Shown in pieces: positions 3,586-14,467 of a stretch of 32,000 bases of DNA. Every line of letters starts with the position of its first letter. Within the stretch, counting starts at the first letter, position 1. The notes under the pieces were generated by a model. The model was not told where the DNA came from. It saw only the letters and a program-made list of their open reading frames with translations, and searched no databases. Position numbers and translations under genes: made by a program. This stretch comes from Schaalia odontolytica. Lineage in GTDB: Bacteria > Actinomycetota > Actinomycetes > Actinomycetales > Actinomycetaceae. The stretch spans positions 2,070,001 to 2,102,000 of the forward strand of contig NZ_CP040006.1 in the NCBI RefSeq assembly GCF_005696695.1. The letters are read 5' to 3'.

Positions 3586-4140
3586 CTAGCGGCAAGAGAC
3601 GATCGTCCCCTCAATCACCGCGCGCCCATTCGATCGCGGCGCAGCCGGAAGTGCCGAACGCGCCGAAGCCTCGGAGGAGGCGAGCGCCGCGAGCGCCCGC
3701 ACCGGATTCCACACGGTGAGAGAGCCTCCAGAGCGAGCCTCAGACCTCGAGGAGCTATCCCATGGGCGCTGGCCTCGTCGCATCGGCATGACCTGACCGT
3801 CAGCAGACGCAGCAAACACGCGATTGCGCTTAGCCTCGGCCTCGGCGACCGCCCCACGCAGGGCGTCCCGCTCCTCTTCCAAGGCCTCGACGCGCCGCTC
3901 GAGCTCGAGGATACGTCGGATACCCGCCAGGTTGATACCCTCTTCCTGGCTCATCCGCTGCACGTCGCGCAGACGCTGCACGTCCCGCTTCGTATAGCGG
4001 CGTCCCCGCCCCTTTGTACGGGCGGGGATCACCAGGCCGAGACGGTCGTACTGGCGCAGGGTCTGCGGATGCATGCCCGCCAACTCGGCCGCAACCGAGA
4101 TGACGAACGTGATCGCATCGTCCGATCCCGTCTTCGCCAT
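3586..4140 (-). CDS. hspR: Heat-shock transcriptional repressor HspR (MerR family)
   Basis: MerR-type HTH ISVAAELAGMHPQTLRQYDRLGLVIPARTKGRGRRYTKRDVQRL. It is the last gene of the dnaK operon, and HAIR operators lie upstream of dnaK. Confidence 0.88.
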   Translation of the reverse strand: MAKTGSDDAITFVISVAAELAGMHPQTLRQYDRLGLVIPARTKGRGRRYTKRDVQRLRDVQRMSQEEGINLAGIRRILELERRVEALEEERDALRGAVAEAEAKRNRVFAASADGQVMPMRRGQRPWDSSSRSEARSGGSLTVWNPVRALAALASSEASARSALPAAPRSNGRAVIEGTIVSCR

Positions 4141-4143
4141 GGC

Positions 4144-5193
4144 TTACTCCTCCACGGCCTCGATCAGGGATGCGCGCACGTCGAGGTCGCCCTCGGCCTT
4201 CGCCATCTCCTTCGCGAGCTTCTTGAGGTCGCGGCTCGGCTTTTCCGGAATCTGGATGGCGACACGGGCAATCAGGTCGCCCGTCGCCTTGGAGGTCTTC
4301 ACTCCCCCGCCGCGCACGCGGATCTCAGCGCCCGAGGAGGAACCCGCGGGCACCTTGACCGTGGCCGTGTTGCCGTCGATCATCGGCACGTCAACGACGG
4401 TGCCGAGGATGGCCTCGGACACGGTCACGGGCAGGGTGAGGACCAGGTCGTCACCCTCGCGCGAGAACACGGGATGCGGCTTGACCGTCACGGCGACCTC
4501 GAGGTCGCCCGCGGGACCGCCGTTGATGCCGGGCTTGCCGTGGCCCTTGACGCGGACCTTCTGGCCGTCCTTGATACCCGCGGGGATGCGGACCTTGATC
4601 GGAGAGCCGCCGACCTTGATGGTCAGGGTCGCGCCGTTCAGGGCCTGACGGAAGGAAATGGCCAGCTTGGCGCGCACGGTCCCGCCCTTTTCAGGGGTGG
4701 GTGCCGCCTGCTGGGCGTGACCGGCGGCGCCGAAGGGCGAACCGTAGGGGTCGCCCCCAAAACGCGCGCCACCGCCGCCACCGCCGAAGAGGCCGGAGAG
4801 GATGTCCTCGAAGCCCGCCCCGCCGCCGGGCATGCCGGAGGTCTGGAAGCGCACGTTATGGCCGCCGCCTCCGAAGCCACCGGCGCCGCCGAAGGCACCG
4901 AAGAGGTCCTCGAAGCCGCCCGCGCCGCCCGATCCGGCGGAGAAGCGTGCCCCGCCGCTAGCCATCGCGCGGATCGCGTCATAGCGCTTACGATCCTCGT
5001 CATTGGACAGGACGGCGTAGGCCTCGCCGATTTCCTTGAACTTGGCCTCAGCGGCCTTGTCGCCCGGGTTCTGATCCGGGTGCCACTGCCGAGCCAGCTT
5101 GCGGTAGGCCTTGGTGATGGCCTTCTTGTCCGCTGTCTTGTCGACTCCGAGGACCTTGTAGAAGTCCTTGGAGAACCATTCCTGTTCACTCAC
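4144..5193 (-). CDS. dnaJ: J-domain co-chaperone DnaJ, class II/CbpA-like (no Cys-rich zinc-finger domain)
   Basis: J domain DFYKVLGV...AYRKLARQWHPDQNP (HPD motif), a Gly/Phe-rich linker and a C-terminal substrate-binding region. The translation contains no cysteine at all. Confidence 0.9.
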   Translation of the reverse strand: MSEQEWFSKDFYKVLGVDKTADKKAITKAYRKLARQWHPDQNPGDKAAEAKFKEIGEAYAVLSNDEDRKRYDAIRAMASGGARFSAGSGGAGGFEDLFGAFGGAGGFGGGGHNVRFQTSGMPGGGAGFEDILSGLFGGGGGGARFGGDPYGSPFGAAGHAQQAAPTPEKGGTVRAKLAISFRQALNGATLTIKVGGSPIKVRIPAGIKDGQKVRVKGHGKPGINGGPAGDLEVAVTVKPHPVFSREGDDLVLTLPVTVSEAILGTVVDVPMIDGNTATVKVPAGSSSGAEIRVRGGGVKTSKATGDLIARVAIQIPEKPSRDLKKLAKEMAKAEGDLDVRASLIEAVEE

Positions 5194-5232: not shown

Positions 5233-5889
5233 TCATTCAGGGTTGTTCACCAGTACCTTCGCGGCGCGCACAACGCGTTCGCCACGGCGGTAGCCGCTCG
5301 CGAGGACCTGCCCGATGACGGGATGGTCGACGTCCGGGCTGGTGGTCGCCATGAGGGCGTCGTGCAGGGCGGGATCGAAGTCGTCGCCCGGAGCGCCATA
5401 GCGCTCGAGCTCGAAACGCGTCTTGAGCGTCTCCTCGAGCTTCGTGGCGATCGACGCGAAGGGGCCGTCCTCCAGGTCGCCGTGCGCGCGGGCGGCGGCG
5501 ATGTCGTCGAGGACGCTGATGAGCGACTCGATGACCTCATCCTGGCCCGCGGTCTTGTGGCCGGGGATGGCCTCCTTGGAGCGGCGCACATAGTTGGCGT
5601 ACTCCTGGCCCTGGTTATACAGCTCCGCGTTGGCGCGGGCCAGCTGGTCTTCGACGCTCGCGATGCGCTCGAGGGCCTTGGCGAGGTCGGAGTCCTCGAT
5701 CTGCTCCTCGAAGGCGCTCATGTCGTCGGTCGAACCCTCGGACGAGGCTTGGGCAGCGTCATCCGCGCCGGGTGCGGTCTCGTTGTTCTCGGCCGCCTGG
5801 CCGGCCGGGGCCGACTCGAAGGAGTCGGCCCCGGCGACGTTGGCGTCTTCGTTGGGCGCCGAGAAACCGTTGGTTTCTTCGGTGCTCAC
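5233..5889 (-). CDS. grpE: Nucleotide exchange factor GrpE
   Basis: Acidic N-terminus, a coiled region, then a GrpE-type C-terminus (...[24 protein letters not shown]). The GTG start overlaps the dnaK stop (GTGA). It lies between dnaK and dnaJ. Confidence 0.92.
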
Positions 5890-7721
5890 TTGTTGTCCTC
5901 GTCAACGATCTCGGCGTCCACGACGTCGTCCTGCGCGGGCGCGGACTGGGCGCCGGCCTCGTCGGCCTGCTGCTTGGCGTAGATCTCCTGGCCGATCTTC
6001 ATGCCGGACTCGGACAGGGTCGCCATGGCGGTCTTCACGGCCTCGATGTCGTCACCCTTGAGGGCTTCCTTGACGGCGTCGACGTCCTTCTGGACGGCCT
6101 CGCGGGTCTCCTCGGAGATCTTGTCGGCCTCGTCCTTGAGCAGCTTCTCCGTCGCGTAGACGGTCTGCTCAGCCTGGTTGCGGGTGTCGGCCTCTTCGCG
6201 GCGCTTCTTGTCCTCGGCGGCGTGCTCCTCAGCCTCGCGCACCATGCGGTCGATGTCCTCCTTGGGCAGGGACGAACCGCCGGTGATCGTCACCGACTGC
6301 TCCTTGCCGGTGCCACGATCCTTCGCGGAGACGTGAACGATGCCGTTCGCGTCGATGTCGAAGGTGACCTCGATCTGCGGCACGCCGCGGGGGGCCGGGG
6401 CGATGCCGGACAGCTCGAAGGTGCCGAGCAGCTTGTTGTCACGGGCGAACTCACGCTCACCCTGGTAGACCTGGATGAGCACGGAGGGCTGGCCGTCCTC
6501 GGCGGTGGAGAAGATCTCCGAGGCCTTGGTCGGGATGGCCGTGTTGCGGTCGATGAGCTTGGTCATGACGCCGCCCTTGGTCTCGATGCCGAGCGACAGC
6601 GGGGTCACGTCGATGAGCAGGACGTCCTTGCGGTCACCCTGGATGACGCCGGCCTGCAGGGCGGCGCCCACGGCGACGACCTCATCGGGGTTGACGCCCT
6701 TGTTGGGCTCGCGACCGCCGGTCAGCTCCTTGACGACCTCGGTGACAGCGGGCATACGGGTGGAGCCGCCGACGAGCACGACGTGGTCGATCTCGGAGAC
6801 GGTCACGCCGGCCTCGGCCATGACATCGCGGAAGGGCTTCTTGGTGCGCTCGAGCAGGTCGGAGGTGAGCTCCTCGAACTTGGCGCGCGTGAGGGACTCA
6901 TCCAGGTGGATGGGGCCATCGGCGGTCATGGACAGGTACTGCAGCGAGATGTTCGTGGAGGTCGCGGAGGACAGCTCCTTCTTCGCCTGCTCAGCGGCTT
7001 CCTTCAGGCGCTGGAGGGCGACCGCGTCCTTGGACAGGTCGGCGCCGGTCTTAGCCTTGACCTGGTCGATCAGCCAGTTGACGATGCGCTGATCCCAGTC
7101 ATCGCCACCCAGGTTGTTGTCGCCGGAGGTGGCGCGCACCTGGATGGTGGAGAAGCCGTCGTCATCCTTGCCCACCTCGAGGAGGGACACGTCGAAGGTG
7201 CCGCCACCGAGGTCGAAGACCAGGATGAGCTCATCTTCCTTGCCCTTTTCGAGGCCGTAGGCCAGGGCCGCGGCGGTGGGCTCGTTGACGATGCGCTCGA
7301 CCTTCAGGCCGGCGATCTGACCGGCATCCTTGGTGGCCTGGCGCTGAGCGTCGTTGAAGTAGGCGGGGACGGTGATGACGGCCTCGGTGACGGGCTCACC
7401 CAGGTAGGCCTCGGCGTCAGCCTTCAGCTTCATGAGGATGCGCGCGGAGATTTCCTGCGCGGTGTACTTCTTGCCGTCGATCTCCGTGGTCCAGTCGGTG
7501 CCCATGTGGCGCTTGACGGAGGAGATGGTGCGGTCGACGTTGGTGACGGCCTGGCGCTTGGCGATCTCGCCAACCAGGACCTCACCGGTCTTGGAGAAGG
7601 CGACGACCGAGGGGGTCGTGCGAGCGCCTTCGGCGTTGGGGATGATAGTGGGCTCGCCGCCTTCGAGGACGGCGATAGCGGAGTTGGTGGTACCGAGGTC
7701 GATGCCGACTGCACGTGCCAT
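5886..7721 (-). CDS. dnaK: Molecular chaperone DnaK (Hsp70)
   Basis: 611 aa with hallmark Hsp70 motifs [19 protein letters not shown] and [10 protein letters not shown]. Confidence 0.98.
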
Positions 7722-7818
7722 GGTTGTTGTCCTTTCGTTCGCTCAGCCGTCTCCGCTTCTGGAGCGGCTCGCGTTGGTCTGTGTGGTCTATGTGGTGCCG
7801 GGAGGGTCCCGACACATC

Positions 7819-7839
7819 CTTGAGTCTGTTGTACTCAAC
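7819..7839. promoter_or_regulatory. HAIR operator 1 (HspR-associated inverted repeat)
   Basis: CTTGAGT-ctgttgt-ACTCAAC, against the consensus CTTGAGT-N7-ACTCAAG. Confidence 0.85.
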
Positions 7840-7866
7840 TTTAGGAGCAGGGTTTTTATTCCGCAA
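7838..7866 (-). promoter_or_regulatory. Candidate sigma-70-type promoter of the dnaK operon (-35 TTGCGG, 17-nt spacer, -10 TAAAGT)
   Basis: Read on the minus strand: TTGCGG (7866-7861), 17 nt, TAAAGT (7843-7838). HAIR-1 begins at the last bases of the -10. Motif match only. Confidence 0.35.
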
Positions 7867-7881
7867 CCCGAAGCCCTCAAA

Positions 7882-7902
7882 CTTGAGTCTGATGTACTCA
7901 AC
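7882..7902. promoter_or_regulatory. HAIR operator 2
   Basis: CTTGAGT-ctgatgt-ACTCAAC. Confidence 0.85.
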
Positions 7903-7959
7903 TTTGCAGGACCGACTTTTATTCCATCGTCGAGTCCCGCAAGCTTGAGCTACTCAAAA

Positions 7960-7980
7960 GCTGAGTCTGATGTACTCAAC
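7960..7980. promoter_or_regulatory. HAIR operator 3 (one mismatch in the left arm)
   Basis: gCTGAGT-ctgatgt-ACTCAAC. Confidence 0.75.
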
Positions 7981-8188
7981 TTTCTTTTCTCAGTTTTATT
8001 CCATTCCACCTGGCCAGGTAGAACGCGGCCACATGGTGCGGAAATTTGCATAGTGTCAAACGGTCGTAAGTCGAACGAAAGCTTGTCGTAAGTTTTTGCA
8101 AAATTCGAAAGTGGCGTACTACACCCCTCCTCTGGCAAACTAGTAACGCTCTCAACGACCGAGAGTCCCGTCAATCAATGGAGACTTG

Positions 8189-8391: not shown

Positions 8392-10560
8392 ATGAAGTAC
8401 GCCATGTTCATCCACTGGGGCGTCTACTCCTCCTACGCAGGCTGGTACAAGGGCCAGAAGCAGGAAGTGGGCTACCCCGAGCAGATCAAGGCATGGGGCC
8501 ACCAGCAGACCTGGGATTCCCGTATCCCGCTGCAGGGCATCCCGCGCGAGGAGTACCTGGCCACCGCCCAGACCTTCGAAGCCCCCAACTTCGACGCGAC
8601 CGCGTGGTGTCAGCAGGCCAAGGACAGCGGCATGAAGATGCTGCTCATCACCTCCAAGCACCACGACGGCTTCGCCATGTGGGACACGGCCACGACCGAC
8701 TACAACTTCACGAAGCAGTCGCCCTCGCACCGCGACCCGCTCCTCGAGCTGTCGCAGGCCTGCAAGCAGGTCGGCATCAAGTTCGGCCTCTACTTCTCCA
8801 ACATCGACTGGGAGAAGCAGCCCGAGAACCCGTGGCGTAACGACAATACGCTGAACGAAGAGGGCTACATGGACTACATCCATGAGCAGCTCAAGGAACT
8901 CCTCGGCGGCAAGTACGGCGAGATCGCCGAGCTCTGGTACGACATGGGCAAGCCGAACCCCGAGCAGTCCGACCAGCTGCGCCAGTGGGCGCACGAGCTC
9001 CAGCCGAACATCATGATCAACTCGCGCGTCGGTAACGACCGCGCGGACTTCGAGGTCGGCTGGGACAACGAGATGCAGTCCGAGCAGACCCAGGGTCCCT
9101 GGGAGTCGGCCGTCTCGATCTTCCACAAGACCTGGGGCTACGCGAACTGGGACGACGCTGCTCCCAAGTTCAAGGACACCGGCTACCCGGACTACTCCGA
9201 GGAAGACTGGGACCACATGATCGACGTCGACAACACGACGGCGTTGCGTAAGGCCCCGGGCGGCGCCCACACCAAGACCACCGAGATCGTGGGCAACATG
9301 TTCTCGACCGTGGCCCTGGGCGGCCAGTTCCTCTTCAACGTCGGCCCGAAGTTCGACGGCTCCTACGACCCGTGGGACGCCTCGGTCCTCAAGGGCATCG
9401 GCGACTGGAACCGCGCACACCCCGGCGTCCTCAACAACTCGCGCCCGACCCACTTCCCCATCGAAACCTGGGGCAAGACCATGGTCGATGATTCCCACAT
9501 CTACCTGGGCATCGAGAAGTGGCCGGCCGACGGCACGATCACGCTGCGCGGCGCCGGCGCCAACGACATCTCCTCGGTGAAGCTGGACGGCTCCGACGCG
9601 GCTCTGACCTACAAGGTCGAGGGCAACGACCTCGTCATCACGCTACCCGCGCAGCCCGACGAGATCCTCCCCGTCGTCACGGTCACCACGAACGGCACGC
9701 CCAACTACGTGCCCACCGGCCTGACCACCATCGGCACCGAGGCGACCACGATCCCCGCCTCCGGCCTCGAAAAGTTCAAGGCCCCCACCCCCAAGACCGG
9801 TGAGACCAGCTTCACGGCCTCCATCACCTCGGGCGACCAGGTCGCCTCGGGCGTGAGCGTCGCCTTCGACACCGAGGGCTTCACGGACGCCTACGCGAAG
9901 TACAAGGTCAGCGTCAACGGACAGGTCATCAAGAACCTCACCGTCGCCGAGCTCAAGGAAGGCGTCGGCCCCTTCGCGATCGGAGCGAACGAGACCGCTC
10001 GCGTGACCCTGGAATACGACAACCCGGCGTACGCCCTCAAGGGCTTCGGCAAGGACACGACCGTCAAGTCGGTCACCGTCAAGGCCGAGAAGCTCTCGAC
10101 CCCCGCCGTGACCGTCGAGCCGTCGACCGTCGAGGCCGGCAAGAACGTCACCGTGAAGGGCACGGGCTTCGCCCCCGAGTCGACCGTGACGCTCACGCTG
10201 CACTCTGAGCCCGTCGAGGTCGGCACCGCCACCACTGACGCGAACGGTGACTTCACCGCAGAGGTGACGGTCCCCGCCGACACCGAGGCCGGCGAGCACA
10301 CGGTCGTCGCTGAGTCCACCACGCCCGCCGTGACGGCCTCCGCGCCGCTGACGGTCACCGCGCCGCCGGCACCCGCCGAGGACCCGAGCGCCGCTCCGAG
10401 CGCGCAGCCCTCCGCCGCCCCGGCGCCCACCCCCGAGCAGGGCGGCAAGGGCGGCCTGGCACGCACCGGCACCAACGCGCTGCTCGCTGTGGCAGCCGCG
10501 CTGATCGCCGCGGGAGCGGGCACGGCGTTCATCCGCCGCTCACGCCGGGCCAAGGCCTAA
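8392..10560 (+). CDS. GH29 alpha-L-fucosidase, cell-wall anchored (LAXTG sorting signal); probably frameshifted relative to its signal peptide (full locus 8189..10560)
   Basis: GH29-type motifs MFIHWGVYS, SKHHDGFAMWDT and ELWYDMG. The C-terminal part carries Ig-like/beta-rich modules and a Pro/Ala linker. The sorting signal is LARTG (10456-10470) plus a hydrophobic segment plus RRSRRAK. The reading frame stays open upstream of 8392 (…QATYDARYAIPAAVAASSEAKVSEWQD) with no start codon. Confidence 0.85.
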   Translation: MKYAMFIHWGVYSSYAGWYKGQKQEVGYPEQIKAWGHQQTWDSRIPLQGIPREEYLATAQTFEAPNFDATAWCQQAKDSGMKMLLITSKHHDGFAMWDTATTDYNFTKQSPSHRDPLLELSQACKQVGIKFGLYFSNIDWEKQPENPWRNDNTLNEEGYMDYIHEQLKELLGGKYGEIAELWYDMGKPNPEQSDQLRQWAHELQPNIMINSRVGNDRADFEVGWDNEMQSEQTQGPWESAVSIFHKTWGYANWDDAAPKFKDTGYPDYSEEDWDHMIDVDNTTALRKAPGGAHTKTTEIVGNMFSTVALGGQFLFNVGPKFDGSYDPWDASVLKGIGDWNRAHPGVLNNSRPTHFPIETWGKTMVDDSHIYLGIEKWPADGTITLRGAGANDISSVKLDGSDAALTYKVEGNDLVITLPAQPDEILPVVTVTTNGTPNYVPTGLTTIGTEATTIPASGLEKFKAPTPKTGETSFTASITSGDQVASGVSVAFDTEGFTDAYAKYKVSVNGQVIKNLTVAELKEGVGPFAIGANETARVTLEYDNPAYALKGFGKDTTVKSVTVKAEKLSTPAVTVEPSTVEAGKNVTVKGTGFAPESTVTLTLHSEPVEVGTATTDANGDFTAEVTVPADTEAGEHTVVAESTTPAVTASAPLTVTAPPAPAEDPSAAPSAQPSAAPAPTPEQGGKGGLARTGTNALLAVAAALIAAGAGTAFIRRSRRAKA

Positions 10561-11797: not shown

Positions 11798-11864
11798 ATC
11801 GCTCCGATCGCGCGGCCCACCCCGGCCCCGGCCCGTTACAATTGGACCTAACGTTAGGAGAAAC

Positions 11865-12320
11865 ATGACCGTCGAACTTATCACCGCCGCCACGCCCGAA
11901 ATCCACGAGGCTATGGGGCGCCTGATCCCCCAGCTGTCCCGCTCTGCCGCGCCAATGAGTGAGGCCGACGTGGAGCGCTTCCTCTCCCAGTCCGGCGTGC
12001 ACCTCTTCGTGTTCCGCCCCGACACCGCTGATTCCGAGGGCAATCACCCGATCCTCGGCATGCTGTCGCTGGCCACCTTCGAGATCCCCACGGGCGTGCG
12101 CGCGTGGATTGAAGACGTCGTCGTTGACGAGGCCGCCCGCGGTCAGGGTGCCGGCCAGTCCCTCGTGGTCGCCGCGATCGAGCACGCTCAGAAGATCGGC
12201 GCACGTACCGTCGACCTCACCTCGCGCCCCTCGCGCGAGGCCGCGAACCGCCTCTACCAGCGCGCCGGCTTCCAGCTGCGTGAGACCAACGTGTACCGAG
12301 TGACGCTCGAGAAGAAGTGA
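11865..12320 (+). CDS. GNAT-family N-acetyltransferase
   Basis: Acetyl-CoA motif A VVVDEAARGQGAGQSLV...ANRLYQRAGF. AGGAGA lies 3-4 nt before the ATG. Confidence 0.8.
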   Translation: MTVELITAATPEIHEAMGRLIPQLSRSAAPMSEADVERFLSQSGVHLFVFRPDTADSEGNHPILGMLSLATFEIPTGVRAWIEDVVVDEAARGQGAGQSLVVAAIEHAQKIGARTVDLTSRPSREAANRLYQRAGFQLRETNVYRVTLEKK

Positions 12321-12431
12321 GCGCGCGGCGCTTGCATCGCTTGCGGCTGTAGTGTCGTGTGCACTGCTTGTAGCTACTTACCTTCCGCACGTTGCGTGCA
12401 GCGCTTGGACTCCAATCAGCCTTTGCCGTAC

Positions 12432-12462
12432 CGCCCGCCCCCGCATGTCGCGTGGGCGGGCG
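12432..12462 (+). terminator. Candidate terminator stem-loop downstream of the GNAT gene
   Basis: 9-bp stem CGCCCGCCC / GGGCGGGCG with a 13-nt loop, followed by CTTCGTTT. Confidence 0.4.
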
Positions 12463-12587
12463 CTTCGTTTGGGCCTTGGGGCGTGACCGGCCTGGGCCGA
12501 GCAGGGCGAACTTTTTCGCGCACAGGACCCCGCCCGTGTTGACTTTGCAACCAATGACACCTCTGCAGCCACTGATGCAGGCCAGCA

Positions 12588-12750
12588 TGAAACCCCCATC
12601 GCCACTGCGCACCCCTGAACGGCAACCGTTGAAACCGACAACACCACTGCGACCGAAAAACACAACAAAAACACCCAATTCCCACCCGCAAAGGCGATGG
12701 CGGTTTCAACCCCAGGCACTTACGAGCGAGCAAAGGCGATGGCGGTTTCA
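12588..12750. repeat. Four copies of a 22-nt motif arranged forward-forward-reverse-reverse
   Basis: TGAAACCCCCATCGCCACTGCG (12588-12609) and TGAAACCGACAACACCACTGCG (12630-12651) on the plus strand. Their reverse-complement form CGCAAAGGCGATGGCGGTTTCA lies at 12687-12708, and aGCAAAGGCGATGGCGGTTTCA at 12729-12750. Confidence 0.8.
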
Positions 12751-12860
12751 CGCGAGAGATTTCCGATGCTCGAGGGCCGCGGCAGGGCCAGAGCCAGAGT
12801 CAGAGTCAGACAAAAGTCGCACATAATTTCCCGCGGTCACTTTTGGAGACCGTCCACAAA

Positions 12861-12876
12861 CGTTGCAATTGCAACG
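12861..12876. repeat. Perfect 16-bp palindrome CGTTGCAATTGCAACG
   Basis: Read directly from the sequence. Confidence 0.9.
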
Positions 12877-12906
12877 ACGTGAATTCAAGGTTTGAAGTAG
12901 CCTCCA

Positions 12907-13370
12907 GGGAATTACGTGCGAAATTACTGAGGGCAAGGCACTCACTAGCACCCGAACGCGGCTGGCGTGGGGGTCGCCGCATGGTCTGAGAGCCTAGCTG
13001 GGCACGCGTAGGCGAGACATTCTTCGCCCAGCACGAGGCCTATATGGCCTTGCGCGAGACAAAATTCGCCCTGCTGACACAAAAGCGCCTAATTTGGGGT
13101 GTTTTGCGCACGCTGGGCGATTTTTCTCTCGCGCACGCGATAAACCAGCTGCGCTGGGCGAGTTTTGTCTCACCTGAACGATGCATAGCGGCCGCCCAGC
13201 AACGGTCCCACCGACGCGGAGGCCAACGGACGTTAGGAAGACCTCGGACTCACAAATTTCGCATGCAATTCACCCAGTGCAGGAATCAACACACGCCAAA
13301 AAACCGCAGAATATCAACGATTCGATTACAAGATCTGAAATACAGTCCGGGGAATTGCATGCGAAATTGC
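12907..13370. repeat. GGGAATT-N-C-N-TGCGAAATT repeat family (3 clear copies, one inverted)
   Basis: GGGAATTACGTGCGAAATTAC (12907-12927, +), AAATTTCGCATGCAATTCACCC (13254-13275, reverse orientation) and GGGGAATTGCATGCGAAATTGC (13349-13370, +). The last two form a 17-bp perfect inverted repeat about 80 nt apart. Confidence 0.8.
13011..13171. repeat. Four copies of a GCGAGAnA-N4-5-TTCGCCC motif, forward-forward-reverse-reverse
   Basis: GGCGAGACATTCTTCGCCCA (13011-13030) and GCGCGAGACAAAATTCGCCC (13052-13071) are forward. GGGCGATTTTTCTCTCGCGC (13115-13134) and GGGCGAGTTTTGTCTC (13156-13171) are reverse. 13052-13071 against 13115-13134 is an 18/20 inverted repeat. Confidence 0.75.
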
Positions 13371-13385
13371 AAAGCACCGCACGCT

Positions 13386-13541
13386 TGGAGGGCACCGGAG
13401 GGACCTACCGCGGTGCCGGTGGACGGCAGCGGGGCCTGGCCAGGCTTCGAGACGACGCGCCGATCAGCACGCCAGGAACCACTGGTGTGGAGGGCGCCGG
13501 AGGGACCGGAGGGCACGGGCGGGCTTCGAGGCGCGGCGCCG
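13386..13541. repeat. G-rich imperfect direct repeat (period about 100 bp)
   Basis: TGGAGGGCACCGGAGGGACC (13386-13405) against TGGAGGGCGCCGGAGGGACC (13488-13507). GGCTTCGAGACGACGCGCCG (13443-13462) against GGCTTCGAGGCGCGGCGCCG (13522-13541). Confidence 0.7.
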
Positions 13542-13627
13542 AACGAAGTGAGGTCGCCTAGCCTCGCGGGCGGCCGGGGCCTCCGGCGCCCGGAACACCC
13601 GTGGGGCCGCAAGCAACATCCAAAAAG

Positions 13628-14467
13628 TCAGAACTCCTCGTAGTACTCCGGGTTCTGGTCGGCCTGGCGGCCGTCGGGGCGGCCAAGCGCGCTGATCGCA
13701 GCCATCTGCTCGTCAGACAGCGAGAAGGAGAAGATGTCGAGGTTTTCGCGCTGGCGCTCAGGGTTACCAGACTTGGGCAGGGGCATCGTGCCGAGCTGGT
13801 AGTGCCAGCGCAGGATGAGACGCGACGGGGACACACCCACCTCGGATGCCAGGGCGACGATCGCGGGGTCTTCGACGATGCGCCACTTGCGCCCCAGGGG
13901 ACTCCACGATTCGGTAAGCACGCCGACCTGCGCGTGATACTCCAGCGCGGCAGCCTGTGGGAAGTAGGGATGCAGCTCGATCTGGTTGACACTCGGGTAC
14001 TCGCCGGTCTCAGCGTGCACACGTTCGAGGTGCTCGGGCAGGAAGTTGCACACGCCGACGGATCGAATGAGGCCGCGGTCGCGGGCGTCCAGCAGGGCCT
14101 GGAAGGCCTCGACGTAGAGGCCGCGCTTGGGGTTGGGCCAGTGGATCAGGTACATGTCCCAGTAGTCCAGGCCGGCGCGCATGAGGGATTCTTCGAGGGT
14201 GTAGACGGCCTCGTCGTAGTGCTGGTGGCGCCCGGGGAGTTTGGAGACGAGGCGCAGGTCCTCGCGGGGGATGCCGCAGCGGCGCACGGCGGCACCGAGG
14301 GCGCCCTCGTTCTCGTAGTTAAAGGCGCTATCGAGCATGCGATACCCGGCCTCAATGCCCGAGACCATTGAGGAGACGCCCGAGGCGCCACGTAGGTTGT
14401 AGGTCCCCAGCGCGATCGCGGGAACATCCAGGCCATCGTTCAGGGTGTACGCGGGGATCTCACTCAT
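13628..14467 (-). CDS. Aldo/keto reductase (2,5-diketo-D-gluconate reductase-like)
   Basis: AKR layout: ALGTYNL, LDSAFNYENE (catalytic Y), LIHWP, SVGVCNF, ELHPY, SWSPLG, KSGNPERQRENL. Confidence 0.85.
   Translation of the reverse strand: MSEIPAYTLNDGLDVPAIALGTYNLRGASGVSSMVSGIEAGYRMLDSAFNYENEGALGAAVRRCGIPREDLRLVSKLPGRHQHYDEAVYTLEESLMRAGLDYWDMYLIHWPNPKRGLYVEAFQALLDARDRGLIRSVGVCNFLPEHLERVHAETGEYPSVNQIELHPYFPQAAALEYHAQVGVLTESWSPLGRKWRIVEDPAIVALASEVGVSPSRLILRWHYQLGTMPLPKSGNPERQRENLDIFSFSLSDEQMAAISALGRPDGRQADQNPEYYEEF

Follow-up and report, generated by a model that had tools for sequence, protein, structure and literature searches.

A 32-kb stretch of the Schaalia odontolytica genome (the window) contains two convergent genes, encoding a GNAT acetyltransferase and an aldo/keto reductase (AKR), that are separated by a gap of 1307 bp (positions 12321-13627), and it is the content of this gap that we analyze here. 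The window is 100% identical to LLVT01000001.1 (GCA_001462375.1), the draft assembly of Actinomyces (now Schaalia) odontolyticus subsp. actinosynbacter XH001, which is the host of the TM7x epibiont (PMC4742689). An earlier reading of the DNA, made from the sequence only, had picked out this interval as a spacer of about 1.3 kb, poor in open reading frames (ORFs), in an otherwise packed window, and it was right on both counts. The gap is the largest in the window (the runners-up are 670 and 591 bp), both neighboring genes are confirmed by Pfam, a gene caller based on codon usage, trained with genomes of this group, recovered GNAT and AKR and made no call between them, and none of the six ORFs in the gap has a Pfam match. 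The lower GC content that was also claimed is true of the gap as a whole (0.609 vs 0.662 in the rest of the window) and of its core at 12495-13380 (0.562), but not of the AKR-proximal part at 13381-13627 (0.737). Scans of the gap found no promoter, tRNA or tmRNA, and a single terminator-like site, located on the minus strand at the GNAT stop codon.

Foldback modules in the gap

Most of the gap is repeated DNA. Judged by BLAST depth, about 85% of the sequence from 12495 onward is multi-copy, with depths of 20-134 over 12495-12760, 12820-12930, 13010-13170 and 13380-13620, and depths of 0-3 over 12321-12490, 12940-13000 and 13180-13240. We refer to the repeat systems in the gap, which together form the island, as the A array, B array, C hairpin and D hairpin, to a fifth family, seen in relatives, as E, and to the comparison loci (from relatives, metagenomes and IMG/VR) by L-numbers; coordinates are collected in Table 1. 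Units A, B and C are each present in 3-4 copies in the gap against 0.00-0.01 in dinucleotide shuffles, an excess so large that the repeats must be real rather than products of chance, and none of the modules A-D occurs again in the window outside the gap.

Table 1. Genes and repeat modules in and around the GNAT-AKR gap
Feature	Position	Strand	Evidence
GNAT acetyltransferase gene, left flank	11865..12320	+	ORF; Pfam Acetyltransf_1, E = 2.9e-14; 3′ end toward island
Unique GNAT 3′ flank	12321..12494	+	BLAST depth from other loci <=3
Terminator-like GC hairpin, then GCTTCGTTTGG	12427-12467		Inverted repeat; kept in L005 and L006
Lone B unit (12500-12520) and conserved B-to-A linker	12495..12587	-	BLAST depth 43-79
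A array, four-unit foldback, units 21-22 nt, 42-nt period	12588..12750	-	BLAST depth 80-134
Junction with (CAGAGC)x4.7 microsatellite at 12783-12810	12751..12806	n/a	TRF; BLAST depth 9-16
C1 hairpin, C-module variant, minus-strand arms AATTTCGCACGTAATTCCC and GGGAAATTATGTGCGA	12813..12925	-	BLAST depth 20-44
Filler without copies elsewhere	12939..13004	n/a	BLAST depth 0-3
Second B array	13005..13175	-	BLAST depth 19-60
Filler without copies elsewhere, with GCGGCCGC-centered palindrome	13176..13248	n/a	Inverted repeat; BLAST depth 0-5
C2 hairpin, 20-nt arms AATTTCGCATGCAATTC and GAATTGCATGCGAAATT, 95% complementary, 74-nt loop	13255..13368	-	BLAST depth 16-28
D array, partial copies of the D hairpin 3′ half, GGAGGGCACC-rich	13369..13470	-	TRF; BLAST depth 36-101
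D-terminal hairpin, GC-rich 146-nt foldback	13471..13616	-	Covariance model 157.6 bits, E = 4.5e-28
AKR gene, right flank	13628..14467	-	ORF; Pfam Aldo_ket_red, E = 9.9e-38

All modules fold back on themselves, and iterated 19-22-nt units make up the stems of A and B. Read on the minus strand, the A array passes from conserved 5′ units TGAAACCGCCATCGCCTTTGC at 12730-12750 and 12688-12708, through a U-rich loop, to diverged 3′ units at 12630-12651 and 12588-12609. Its unit follows the pattern TGAAACC...GCC(A/T)..TGC with a 42-nt period and two units per orientation, the 3′ units reading GCAG(A/T)GGTG......GGTTTCA on that strand. The linker between the lone B unit and the A array contains a small hairpin at 12564-12581, and the same junction recurs at many loci. 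In the second B array, direct units GCGAGACAnnnTTCGCCCAGC at 13012 and 13054 (42-nt spacing) are followed by inverted units at 13112 and 13153, with the arms GCGCGAAAAAGTTCGCCCAGC and GCTGGGCGAGTTTTTTCGCGG forming the innermost hairpin. The C hairpins have arms of 18-20 bp and loops of 74-76 nt; read by eye, the arms of C1 and C2 differ by two two-sided changes and one G·U, and a related C variant with arms GCACGT and ACGTGC has several other copies. The D region (13369-13616) consists of GC-rich GGAGGG repeats ending in a long inverted repeat, and its terminal hairpin begins 11 nt past the AKR stop codon. Transcription of the AKR gene is directed into the D end of the island. The small GC hairpin in the unique GNAT flank is separate from the island and could be a terminator for GNAT.

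Dispersal in related genomes

When one genome per species was scanned with the 21-nt A unit, at least 120 stretches were found; about 106 among the matches listed lie in Schaalia, Pauljensenia or 'Actinomyces' assemblies, and four assemblies hold at least 16, 13, 10 and 9 loci, respectively. Another 14 of the matches listed fall in unrelated phyla, where the unit is single and unaccompanied by any other. A metagenome scan likewise found at least 120 stretches. The A, B and C units occur together in the comparison loci (320, 119 and 106 matches), and the module families are scattered through the Schaalia odontolytica/Pauljensenia group, the best-sampled genomes having at least 9-16 loci each. 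These sites are intergenic throughout: gene calls on the loci placed a predicted gene in none of 149 clusters.

In BLAST comparisons of the loci the same succession of modules, in the same relative orientation, came back repeatedly: it runs from the B array through a conserved linker to the A array, C hairpin, D array and, last, the D-terminal hairpin. A single array may contain as many as five direct A units. As these alignments show, the order and orientation counted from the stop codon of the adjacent gene are fixed as D hairpin, C hairpin, A array and B array. At various loci modules are often missing, duplicated or truncated. By the same comparison, the island in the window is a canonical B(1 unit)-A-C-D series to which another B array and another C hairpin have been added, both of them between C and D. 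The sequence-only reading had counted at least four independent repeat systems here; the repeats survive the comparison with shuffled DNA, but since the modules travel together at other loci they are not independent and are better described as parts of one dispersed composite. Its suggestion of a partition-type array, taken as particular to this locus, is not supported, given the presence of the same modules at well over 100 sites in relatives. Its proposal of a cluster of non-autonomous elements akin to miniature inverted-repeat transposable elements came close, in that every repeat system in the gap is a dispersed multi-copy family; a parent insertion sequence (IS) with matching ends was not found.

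We consider it probable that the gap is an island of at least four dispersed, non-coding foldback repeat families, BIME/BOX-like in character and probably transcribed as a structured 3′ tail, and our confidence rests almost wholly on its identity as a dispersed mosaic repeat island.

Independent short-read assemblies of the same locus break inside the modules. In L002, L004 and L008 the contig ends at window position 12594, 6 nt into the first A unit, and in L014, L018 and L020 at 13579, about 37 nt into the D hairpin, all with 100% identity over the shared stretch of the gap. Such breaks are expected if the modules are multi-copy or polymorphic in the sample, and they suggest, indirectly, that the modules are repeated within the XH001 genome as well.

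Several further loci deserve mention. Stretches of 1.6-1.9 kb that lie between clusters and contain neither a predicted gene nor a match to A-D (L023 630-2563 and L050 3471-5078) may hold additional repeat families absent from the window. The Schaalia repeat families are also present in assemblies labeled 'Xylanimonas cellulosilytica 352_XCEL' and 'Sanguibacter keddieii 250_SKED' (JVKM01 and JVOJ01 loci), and L069 611-1312 matches window 11801-12502 at 92%; judged by this similarity, both assemblies are probably mislabeled Schaalia genomes. Phage and plasmid collections gave no match to the gap. Among viral contigs there is one B-A cluster, positioned at the end of a contig classed as viral (L147 8145-8492; IMGVR_UViG_3300045988_155726; 64% GC), and it may represent a prophage border or host DNA.

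Pairing and strand asymmetry

To describe the D hairpin we aligned 23 copies (86% mean column identity), in which RNAalifold predicted 31 pairs, 11 of them with compensatory changes, and built from this alignment a covariance model that found 56 matches in 0.66 Mb. In the model-fitted alignment 21 of the 31 pairs show two-sided changes, and 95.3% of cells are paired as against 37-47% when the partners are slid. D subfamilies differ by whole compensated blocks, such as GAGGC...GCCTC vs GAGATCG...CGATCTC, and in L133, from another species, the D copy beside the orthologous AKR gene is heavily diverged with its pairing kept. The A array, for which 58 copies were aligned with MAFFT without structural fitting, has 87-92% of cells paired and a few two-sided changes. 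In the C variant, where GCATGC/GCATGC is replaced by GCACGT/ACGTGC, both arms shift together and pairing is preserved. Compensatory changes thus keep the pairing in D, A and C, as far as the aligned copies reveal.

The strand on which this pairing is preserved can be read from the ratio of G·U to A·C oppositions, counted on the strand that is sense to the gene at the D end (the minus strand of the window). G·U outnumbers A·C by 304 to 29 in A (the 58-copy alignment), 19 to 3 in B (20 distinct hairpins) and 17 to 2 in C (22 distinct hairpins), with a modest excess of 42 to 27 in D (the model-fitted alignment), and we take this to mean that the fold belongs to one strand. The excess in A and B consists largely of fixed, inherited differences between arms, while variable positions still give about 3:1. 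Folding energy was also compared for the two strands of D and favored the G-rich antisense strand in 29 of 32 copies; this measure was set aside in favor of the pair-level counts because it is confounded by base composition.

These results bear on the earlier suggestion of a structured RNA. As an RNA gene specific to this locus it is not supported, given more than 100 sites and no Rfam family, but at the level of the repeat families it may hold, as the covariation and the one-strand G·U excess indicate. The Rfam scan which that reading had proposed was run with the Rfam 15 covariance models and gave no family in the window at the gathering threshold; in the gap, matches at E up to 10 were chance-level microRNA or CRISPR-DR hits, and 18 repeat-bearing loci (148 kb) yielded only tRNAs. 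A CRISPR array was considered and rejected: units of either orientation are present, the 21-nt 'spacers' show conservation from copy to copy, the loci number more than 100, and the CRISPR-DR match scores 15.1 bits (E = 7.2).

The regular spacing of the units (42 bp, or four helical turns, in A and B; 19 bp in E), with direct copies followed by inverted ones and each 42-bp repeat half conserved and half variable, is what might be expected of convergent sets of sites for a DNA-binding protein, whether nucleoid-associated, partition-type or a multi-site transposase. However, the arms differ systematically by transitions that leave G·U pairs intact on one strand, a pattern that is unexpected for duplex binding sites and argues instead for a single-stranded fold. 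C and D are plain hairpins, the sites are dispersed rather than near an origin or par locus, and no candidate protein is known. We regard such a role as very unlikely.

Orientation relative to adjacent genes

Islands were oriented by BLAST on their asymmetric modules in 22 cases, among which exact A-unit matches would have mis-oriented two. Reading 60 islands from B to D, the flanking genes converge in 26 and diverge in five; among the tandem pairs, 25 have the D-side gene upstream and four are the reverse. The D end consequently faces the 3′ end of a gene in 51 of the 60 clusters, and the B end shows no preference. The same polarity is seen, in an independent count, among the covariance-model copies of D, 26 of 28 of which have their 5′ end toward the 3′ end of a co-oriented gene, at a median distance of about 130 nt. 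Several D copies sit just past an ordinary terminator hairpin or a tRNA gene. In L064, for example, a terminator-like hairpin lies between a tRNA gene (3991-4063, +) and the co-oriented D hairpin downstream of it (4130-4275, +), so D hairpins are also placed after RNA genes. In L024 two islands only 2.5 kb apart have opposite orientations, each matching its own neighboring gene, and this favors a local rule set by the adjacent gene.

Turnover at the orthologous AKR-GNAT site

The convergent AKR-GNAT pair and its neighbors are kept in relatives, whereas the sequence between the two genes is not. Where the AKR protein is 69% identical to that of the window (L145/L146), the spacer is 87 bp with simple hairpins; at 85% (L142/L143) it is 412 bp and at 84% (L144) 684 bp. 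Where the AKR protein is identical, the spacer is about 1400 bp with a duplication of D and DNA 95-97% identical to the window gap (L016/L017), or has a module order different from that of the window (L019); the order differs also at the same locus in L006. BLAST finds no similarity between the window gap and the spacers of 412 and 684 bp, and in L142-L144 these spacers contain a D-like hairpin beside AKR together with arrays of family E. The latter consists of GCGGATAGGTTAT with a 19-nt period, direct copies preceding inverted ones, and is itself dispersed; it occurs at L142 6064-6145 and L144 6025-6296, and also in L022, L026, L033, L045 and L048. The difference between the window and L019 is a C-B-C block with C arms at both ends, as recombination between C arms would give. 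Comparison of these spacers shows that modules have built up at the AKR-GNAT site after the lineages separated, and that the modules filling it are not the same from one lineage to the next.

In one metagenome strain (L005 1620-2852) an IS3-family element with HTH_Tnp_1 and rve ORFs lies inside a GNAT-proximal A unit. It is the only IS seen, and it was discarded as a parent for the modules, given that it splits an A unit and has ends that bear no relation to theirs.

The gap could also be the remnant of a decayed protein-coding gene, as might be supposed from the ORFs of 200-238 aa called in the equivalent gap of some assemblies (L006, L016 and L017). These ORFs and those of the window gap belong to no Pfam family, the codon-usage caller rejects them, most of the gap from 12495 on is multi-copy repeat, and the relatives, which were to supply an intact gene if the gap were a pseudogene, hold the same two genes with a shorter spacer between them, 87-684 bp long and free of genes. 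We therefore regard this explanation as close to refuted.

Turnover also bears on whether the hairpins are RNA elements selected by the host (3′-end structures, terminator-insulators or a multi-copy long structured RNA) rather than selfish DNA. Such selection would explain the compensatory changes in D, A and C, the G·U excess and the U-rich loop motifs on the sense strand of the upstream gene, the position of D at a median of about 130 nt past a co-oriented stop codon, and the diverged D-like hairpin that L133, L142 and L144 have at the corresponding position near AKR. Yet close relatives differ in module content at the orthologous site and a distant one is nearly empty there (87 bp), modules are frequently absent, doubled or shortened, no U-tract follows D, and Rfam gives no match. 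We consider host selection unlikely.

Other features of the window

Upstream of dnaK (5886-7721, -), three 27-nt copies of AAACTTGAGTCTGATGTACTCAACTTT at 7816-7983 (CTTGAGT-N7-ACTCAA inverted repeats) look like HAIR operators for HspR; the last gene of the dnaK operon is a MerR-family gene (3586-4140, -). A GH29-type alpha-L-fucosidase ORF at 8392-10560 terminates in ...GGLARTGTNALLAVAAALIAAGAGTAFIRRSRRAKA, an LAxTG-type cell-wall sorting signal.

Discussion

If the gap is a dispersed mosaic repeat island, as we favor, its modules would be selfish, non-autonomous DNA amplified by some route. Islands would then lengthen and shorten through slippage and recombination between units, and would be tolerated downstream of genes since they may do little harm there. 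Because the folding strand is the strand transcribed from the D-side gene, the AKR transcript would most likely continue through the island as a long, structured 3′ tail, and by analogy with REP/BIME, BOX and SPRITE elements this tail may act as a barrier to read-through and to 3′ exonucleases between the convergent genes. We advance this functional part tentatively, as a possibility that falls short of being probable.

A number of observations weigh against this interpretation. The 32-kb XH001 window holds one island only. Neighboring islands on one contig agree in orientation over tens of kb (17 pairs vs 5, or 15 vs 5 when the islands are separated by more than 8 kb), and 63% of the non-adjacent genes in the 8-kb loci are co-oriented with the island (203 vs 121), so that replication, rather than transcription, may underlie the polarity of the islands. 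Strand-biased C-to-T mutation or inheritance from a master copy could account for part of the G·U excess. A canonical intrinsic terminator was considered for D and rejected: the terminator scan of the island was empty, no site in it combines a hairpin with a U-tract, and the sequence after D is not U-rich, which leaves a simple intrinsic-terminator role unsupported. A tblastn search of about 0.9 Mb of repeat loci with IS200 TnpA and E. coli RAYT found nothing below E = 0.2, though this is a weak test. Finally, we found no partner transposase, no terminal inverted repeats (TIRs) of the composite and no target-site duplication, so that mobility is deduced solely from how the modules are distributed and from which sites have or lack them. 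One end of the B-A-C-D composite bears no relation to the other, and single modules have inverted arms (20 nt, 95% in C); no duplicated flank surrounds copies of A, C or D, and the loci offer no clean filled/empty pair for the same module.

The orientation data raise the alternative that the modules were moved as single-stranded DNA (ssDNA) by an HUH/Y1 enzyme of the RAYT or IS200/IS605 type, in the manner of REPIN- or PATE-like elements. The replication fork would then determine their orientation, since it is on the lagging-strand template that the folding strand would lie. In keeping with this, all modules are hairpins with a one-strand G·T excess, the composite shows neither TIRs nor an obvious target duplication, and both neighboring islands and non-adjacent genes show the concordance described above. 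By calculation, the flank counts of 26:25:4:5 fit about 65% leading-strand genes combined with promoter avoidance, and are thus compatible with a replication-tied as well as a transcription-tied model. But the search for IS200 TnpA or RAYT in the repeat loci came back empty, with the weakness already noted, the two opposed islands of L024 each match their own gene, and the gene adjacent to D is co-oriented in 85-93% of cases vs 63% for other nearby genes. We therefore hold mobilization as ssDNA to be doubtful, and continue to prefer the mosaic repeat island.

Among known systems, the REP/BIME sequences of enterobacteria are extragenic, high-copy, hairpin-forming mosaics of motifs with a recurrent order, frequent just downstream of genes and in the intervals of convergent pairs, and are credited with effects on termination and on the 3′ ends of mRNAs. 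The modules described here are likewise extragenic hairpin mosaics of high copy number (at least 120 stretches in each of two collections). Unlike the REP unit, which is an imperfect palindrome of 20-40 bp, the A, B and E units are 13-22 nt long and are not palindromes, the hairpins being 115-170 nt and formed from inverted arrays or foldbacks. In REP sequences one end of the palindrome is described as bearing a conserved tetranucleotide, GTAG or CGTC (PMC3733652). On inspection, neither GTAG/CTAC nor CGTC/GACG stands at the start or end of any consensus arm of the modules A to D. The composite further differs from BIMEs in reaching about 1 kb and in its strong polarity, and no RAYT was seen in the repeat loci by the weak tblastn search.

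The BOX elements of Streptococcus pneumoniae, with the structure boxA-boxB(n)-boxC, a length of 67-637 bp and a variable number of internal modules, fold as RNA and are judged to be parasitic, with a likely effect on co-transcribed genes and a distribution confined to one species group (PMC3049150). The present islands resemble them in their ordered modules, variable internal copy number and strain-to-strain variation in length (the D duplication of L016/L017; L006 and L019). However, BOX elements have TIRs and target duplications (PMC3049150), whereas neither TIRs of the composite nor a target duplication was seen here. Given the base composition of the modules (56-74% GC), homology to boxA, boxB or boxC is unlikely. 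The orientation bias of pneumococcal repeats, at 61-63%, mirrors a coding bias of about 61% (PMC3049150), in contrast to the 85-93% of cases in which the D end faces a gene 3′ end. SPRITE, also from S. pneumoniae, comprises dispersed terminator-like hairpins near the 3′ ends of coding sequences, strongly enriched between convergent genes, each an 18-bp duplex with a long U-rich tract (PMC3049150). Our hairpins share the dispersal and the position by gene 3′ ends, here between convergent genes, but D is a GC-rich hairpin of about 31 pairs and has no U-tract.

REPIN/RAYT and IS200/IS605-derived palindromic elements form hairpins on one strand, have no TIRs for the whole unit, and can be oriented by replication; the modules here are longer and form a four-part composite, and the weak tblastn search detected no Y1 transposase. 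In foldback transposons and elements with multi-site ends (Tn7, Mu, IR/DR), inverted arms are built of tandem short units, direct and then inverted. The A foldback is reminiscent of these in starting with TG and finishing with CA on the sense strand, but no transposase or target duplication was found. The island thus matches BIME, BOX and SPRITE in kind and is a member of none of these families. Searches of the literature on repeats of Schaalia, A. odontolyticus and 'Actinomyces-1' found no description of these sequences, and this hairpin-repeat family does not seem to have been described previously. A bolder proposal, which we offer with considerable doubt, is that B-A-C-D might represent a new class of element, about 1 kb long, polar and one-stranded, without TIRs and with foldback arms of iterated 19-42-nt units, that is either mobilized as ssDNA or serves the cell as a multi-hairpin RNA insulator after genes.

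The repeat families account for the odd 1.3-kb gap of the window and, beyond it, for many intergenic regions of 1-4 kb in the Schaalia odontolytica group, to which XH001, as model host of the Saccharibacteria epibiont TM7x, belongs. They fragment short-read assemblies of oral Schaalia, whose contigs end where the repeats start, and the 200-238-aa ORFs without Pfam families that are annotated in equivalent gaps are probably spurious. The repeats are also likely hot spots of recombination and length variation, which matters for the choice of neutral insertion sites. The strict placement of D after stop codons, together with the one-strand G·U bias, makes these islands a handy case for studying whether transcription or replication shapes dispersed repeats.

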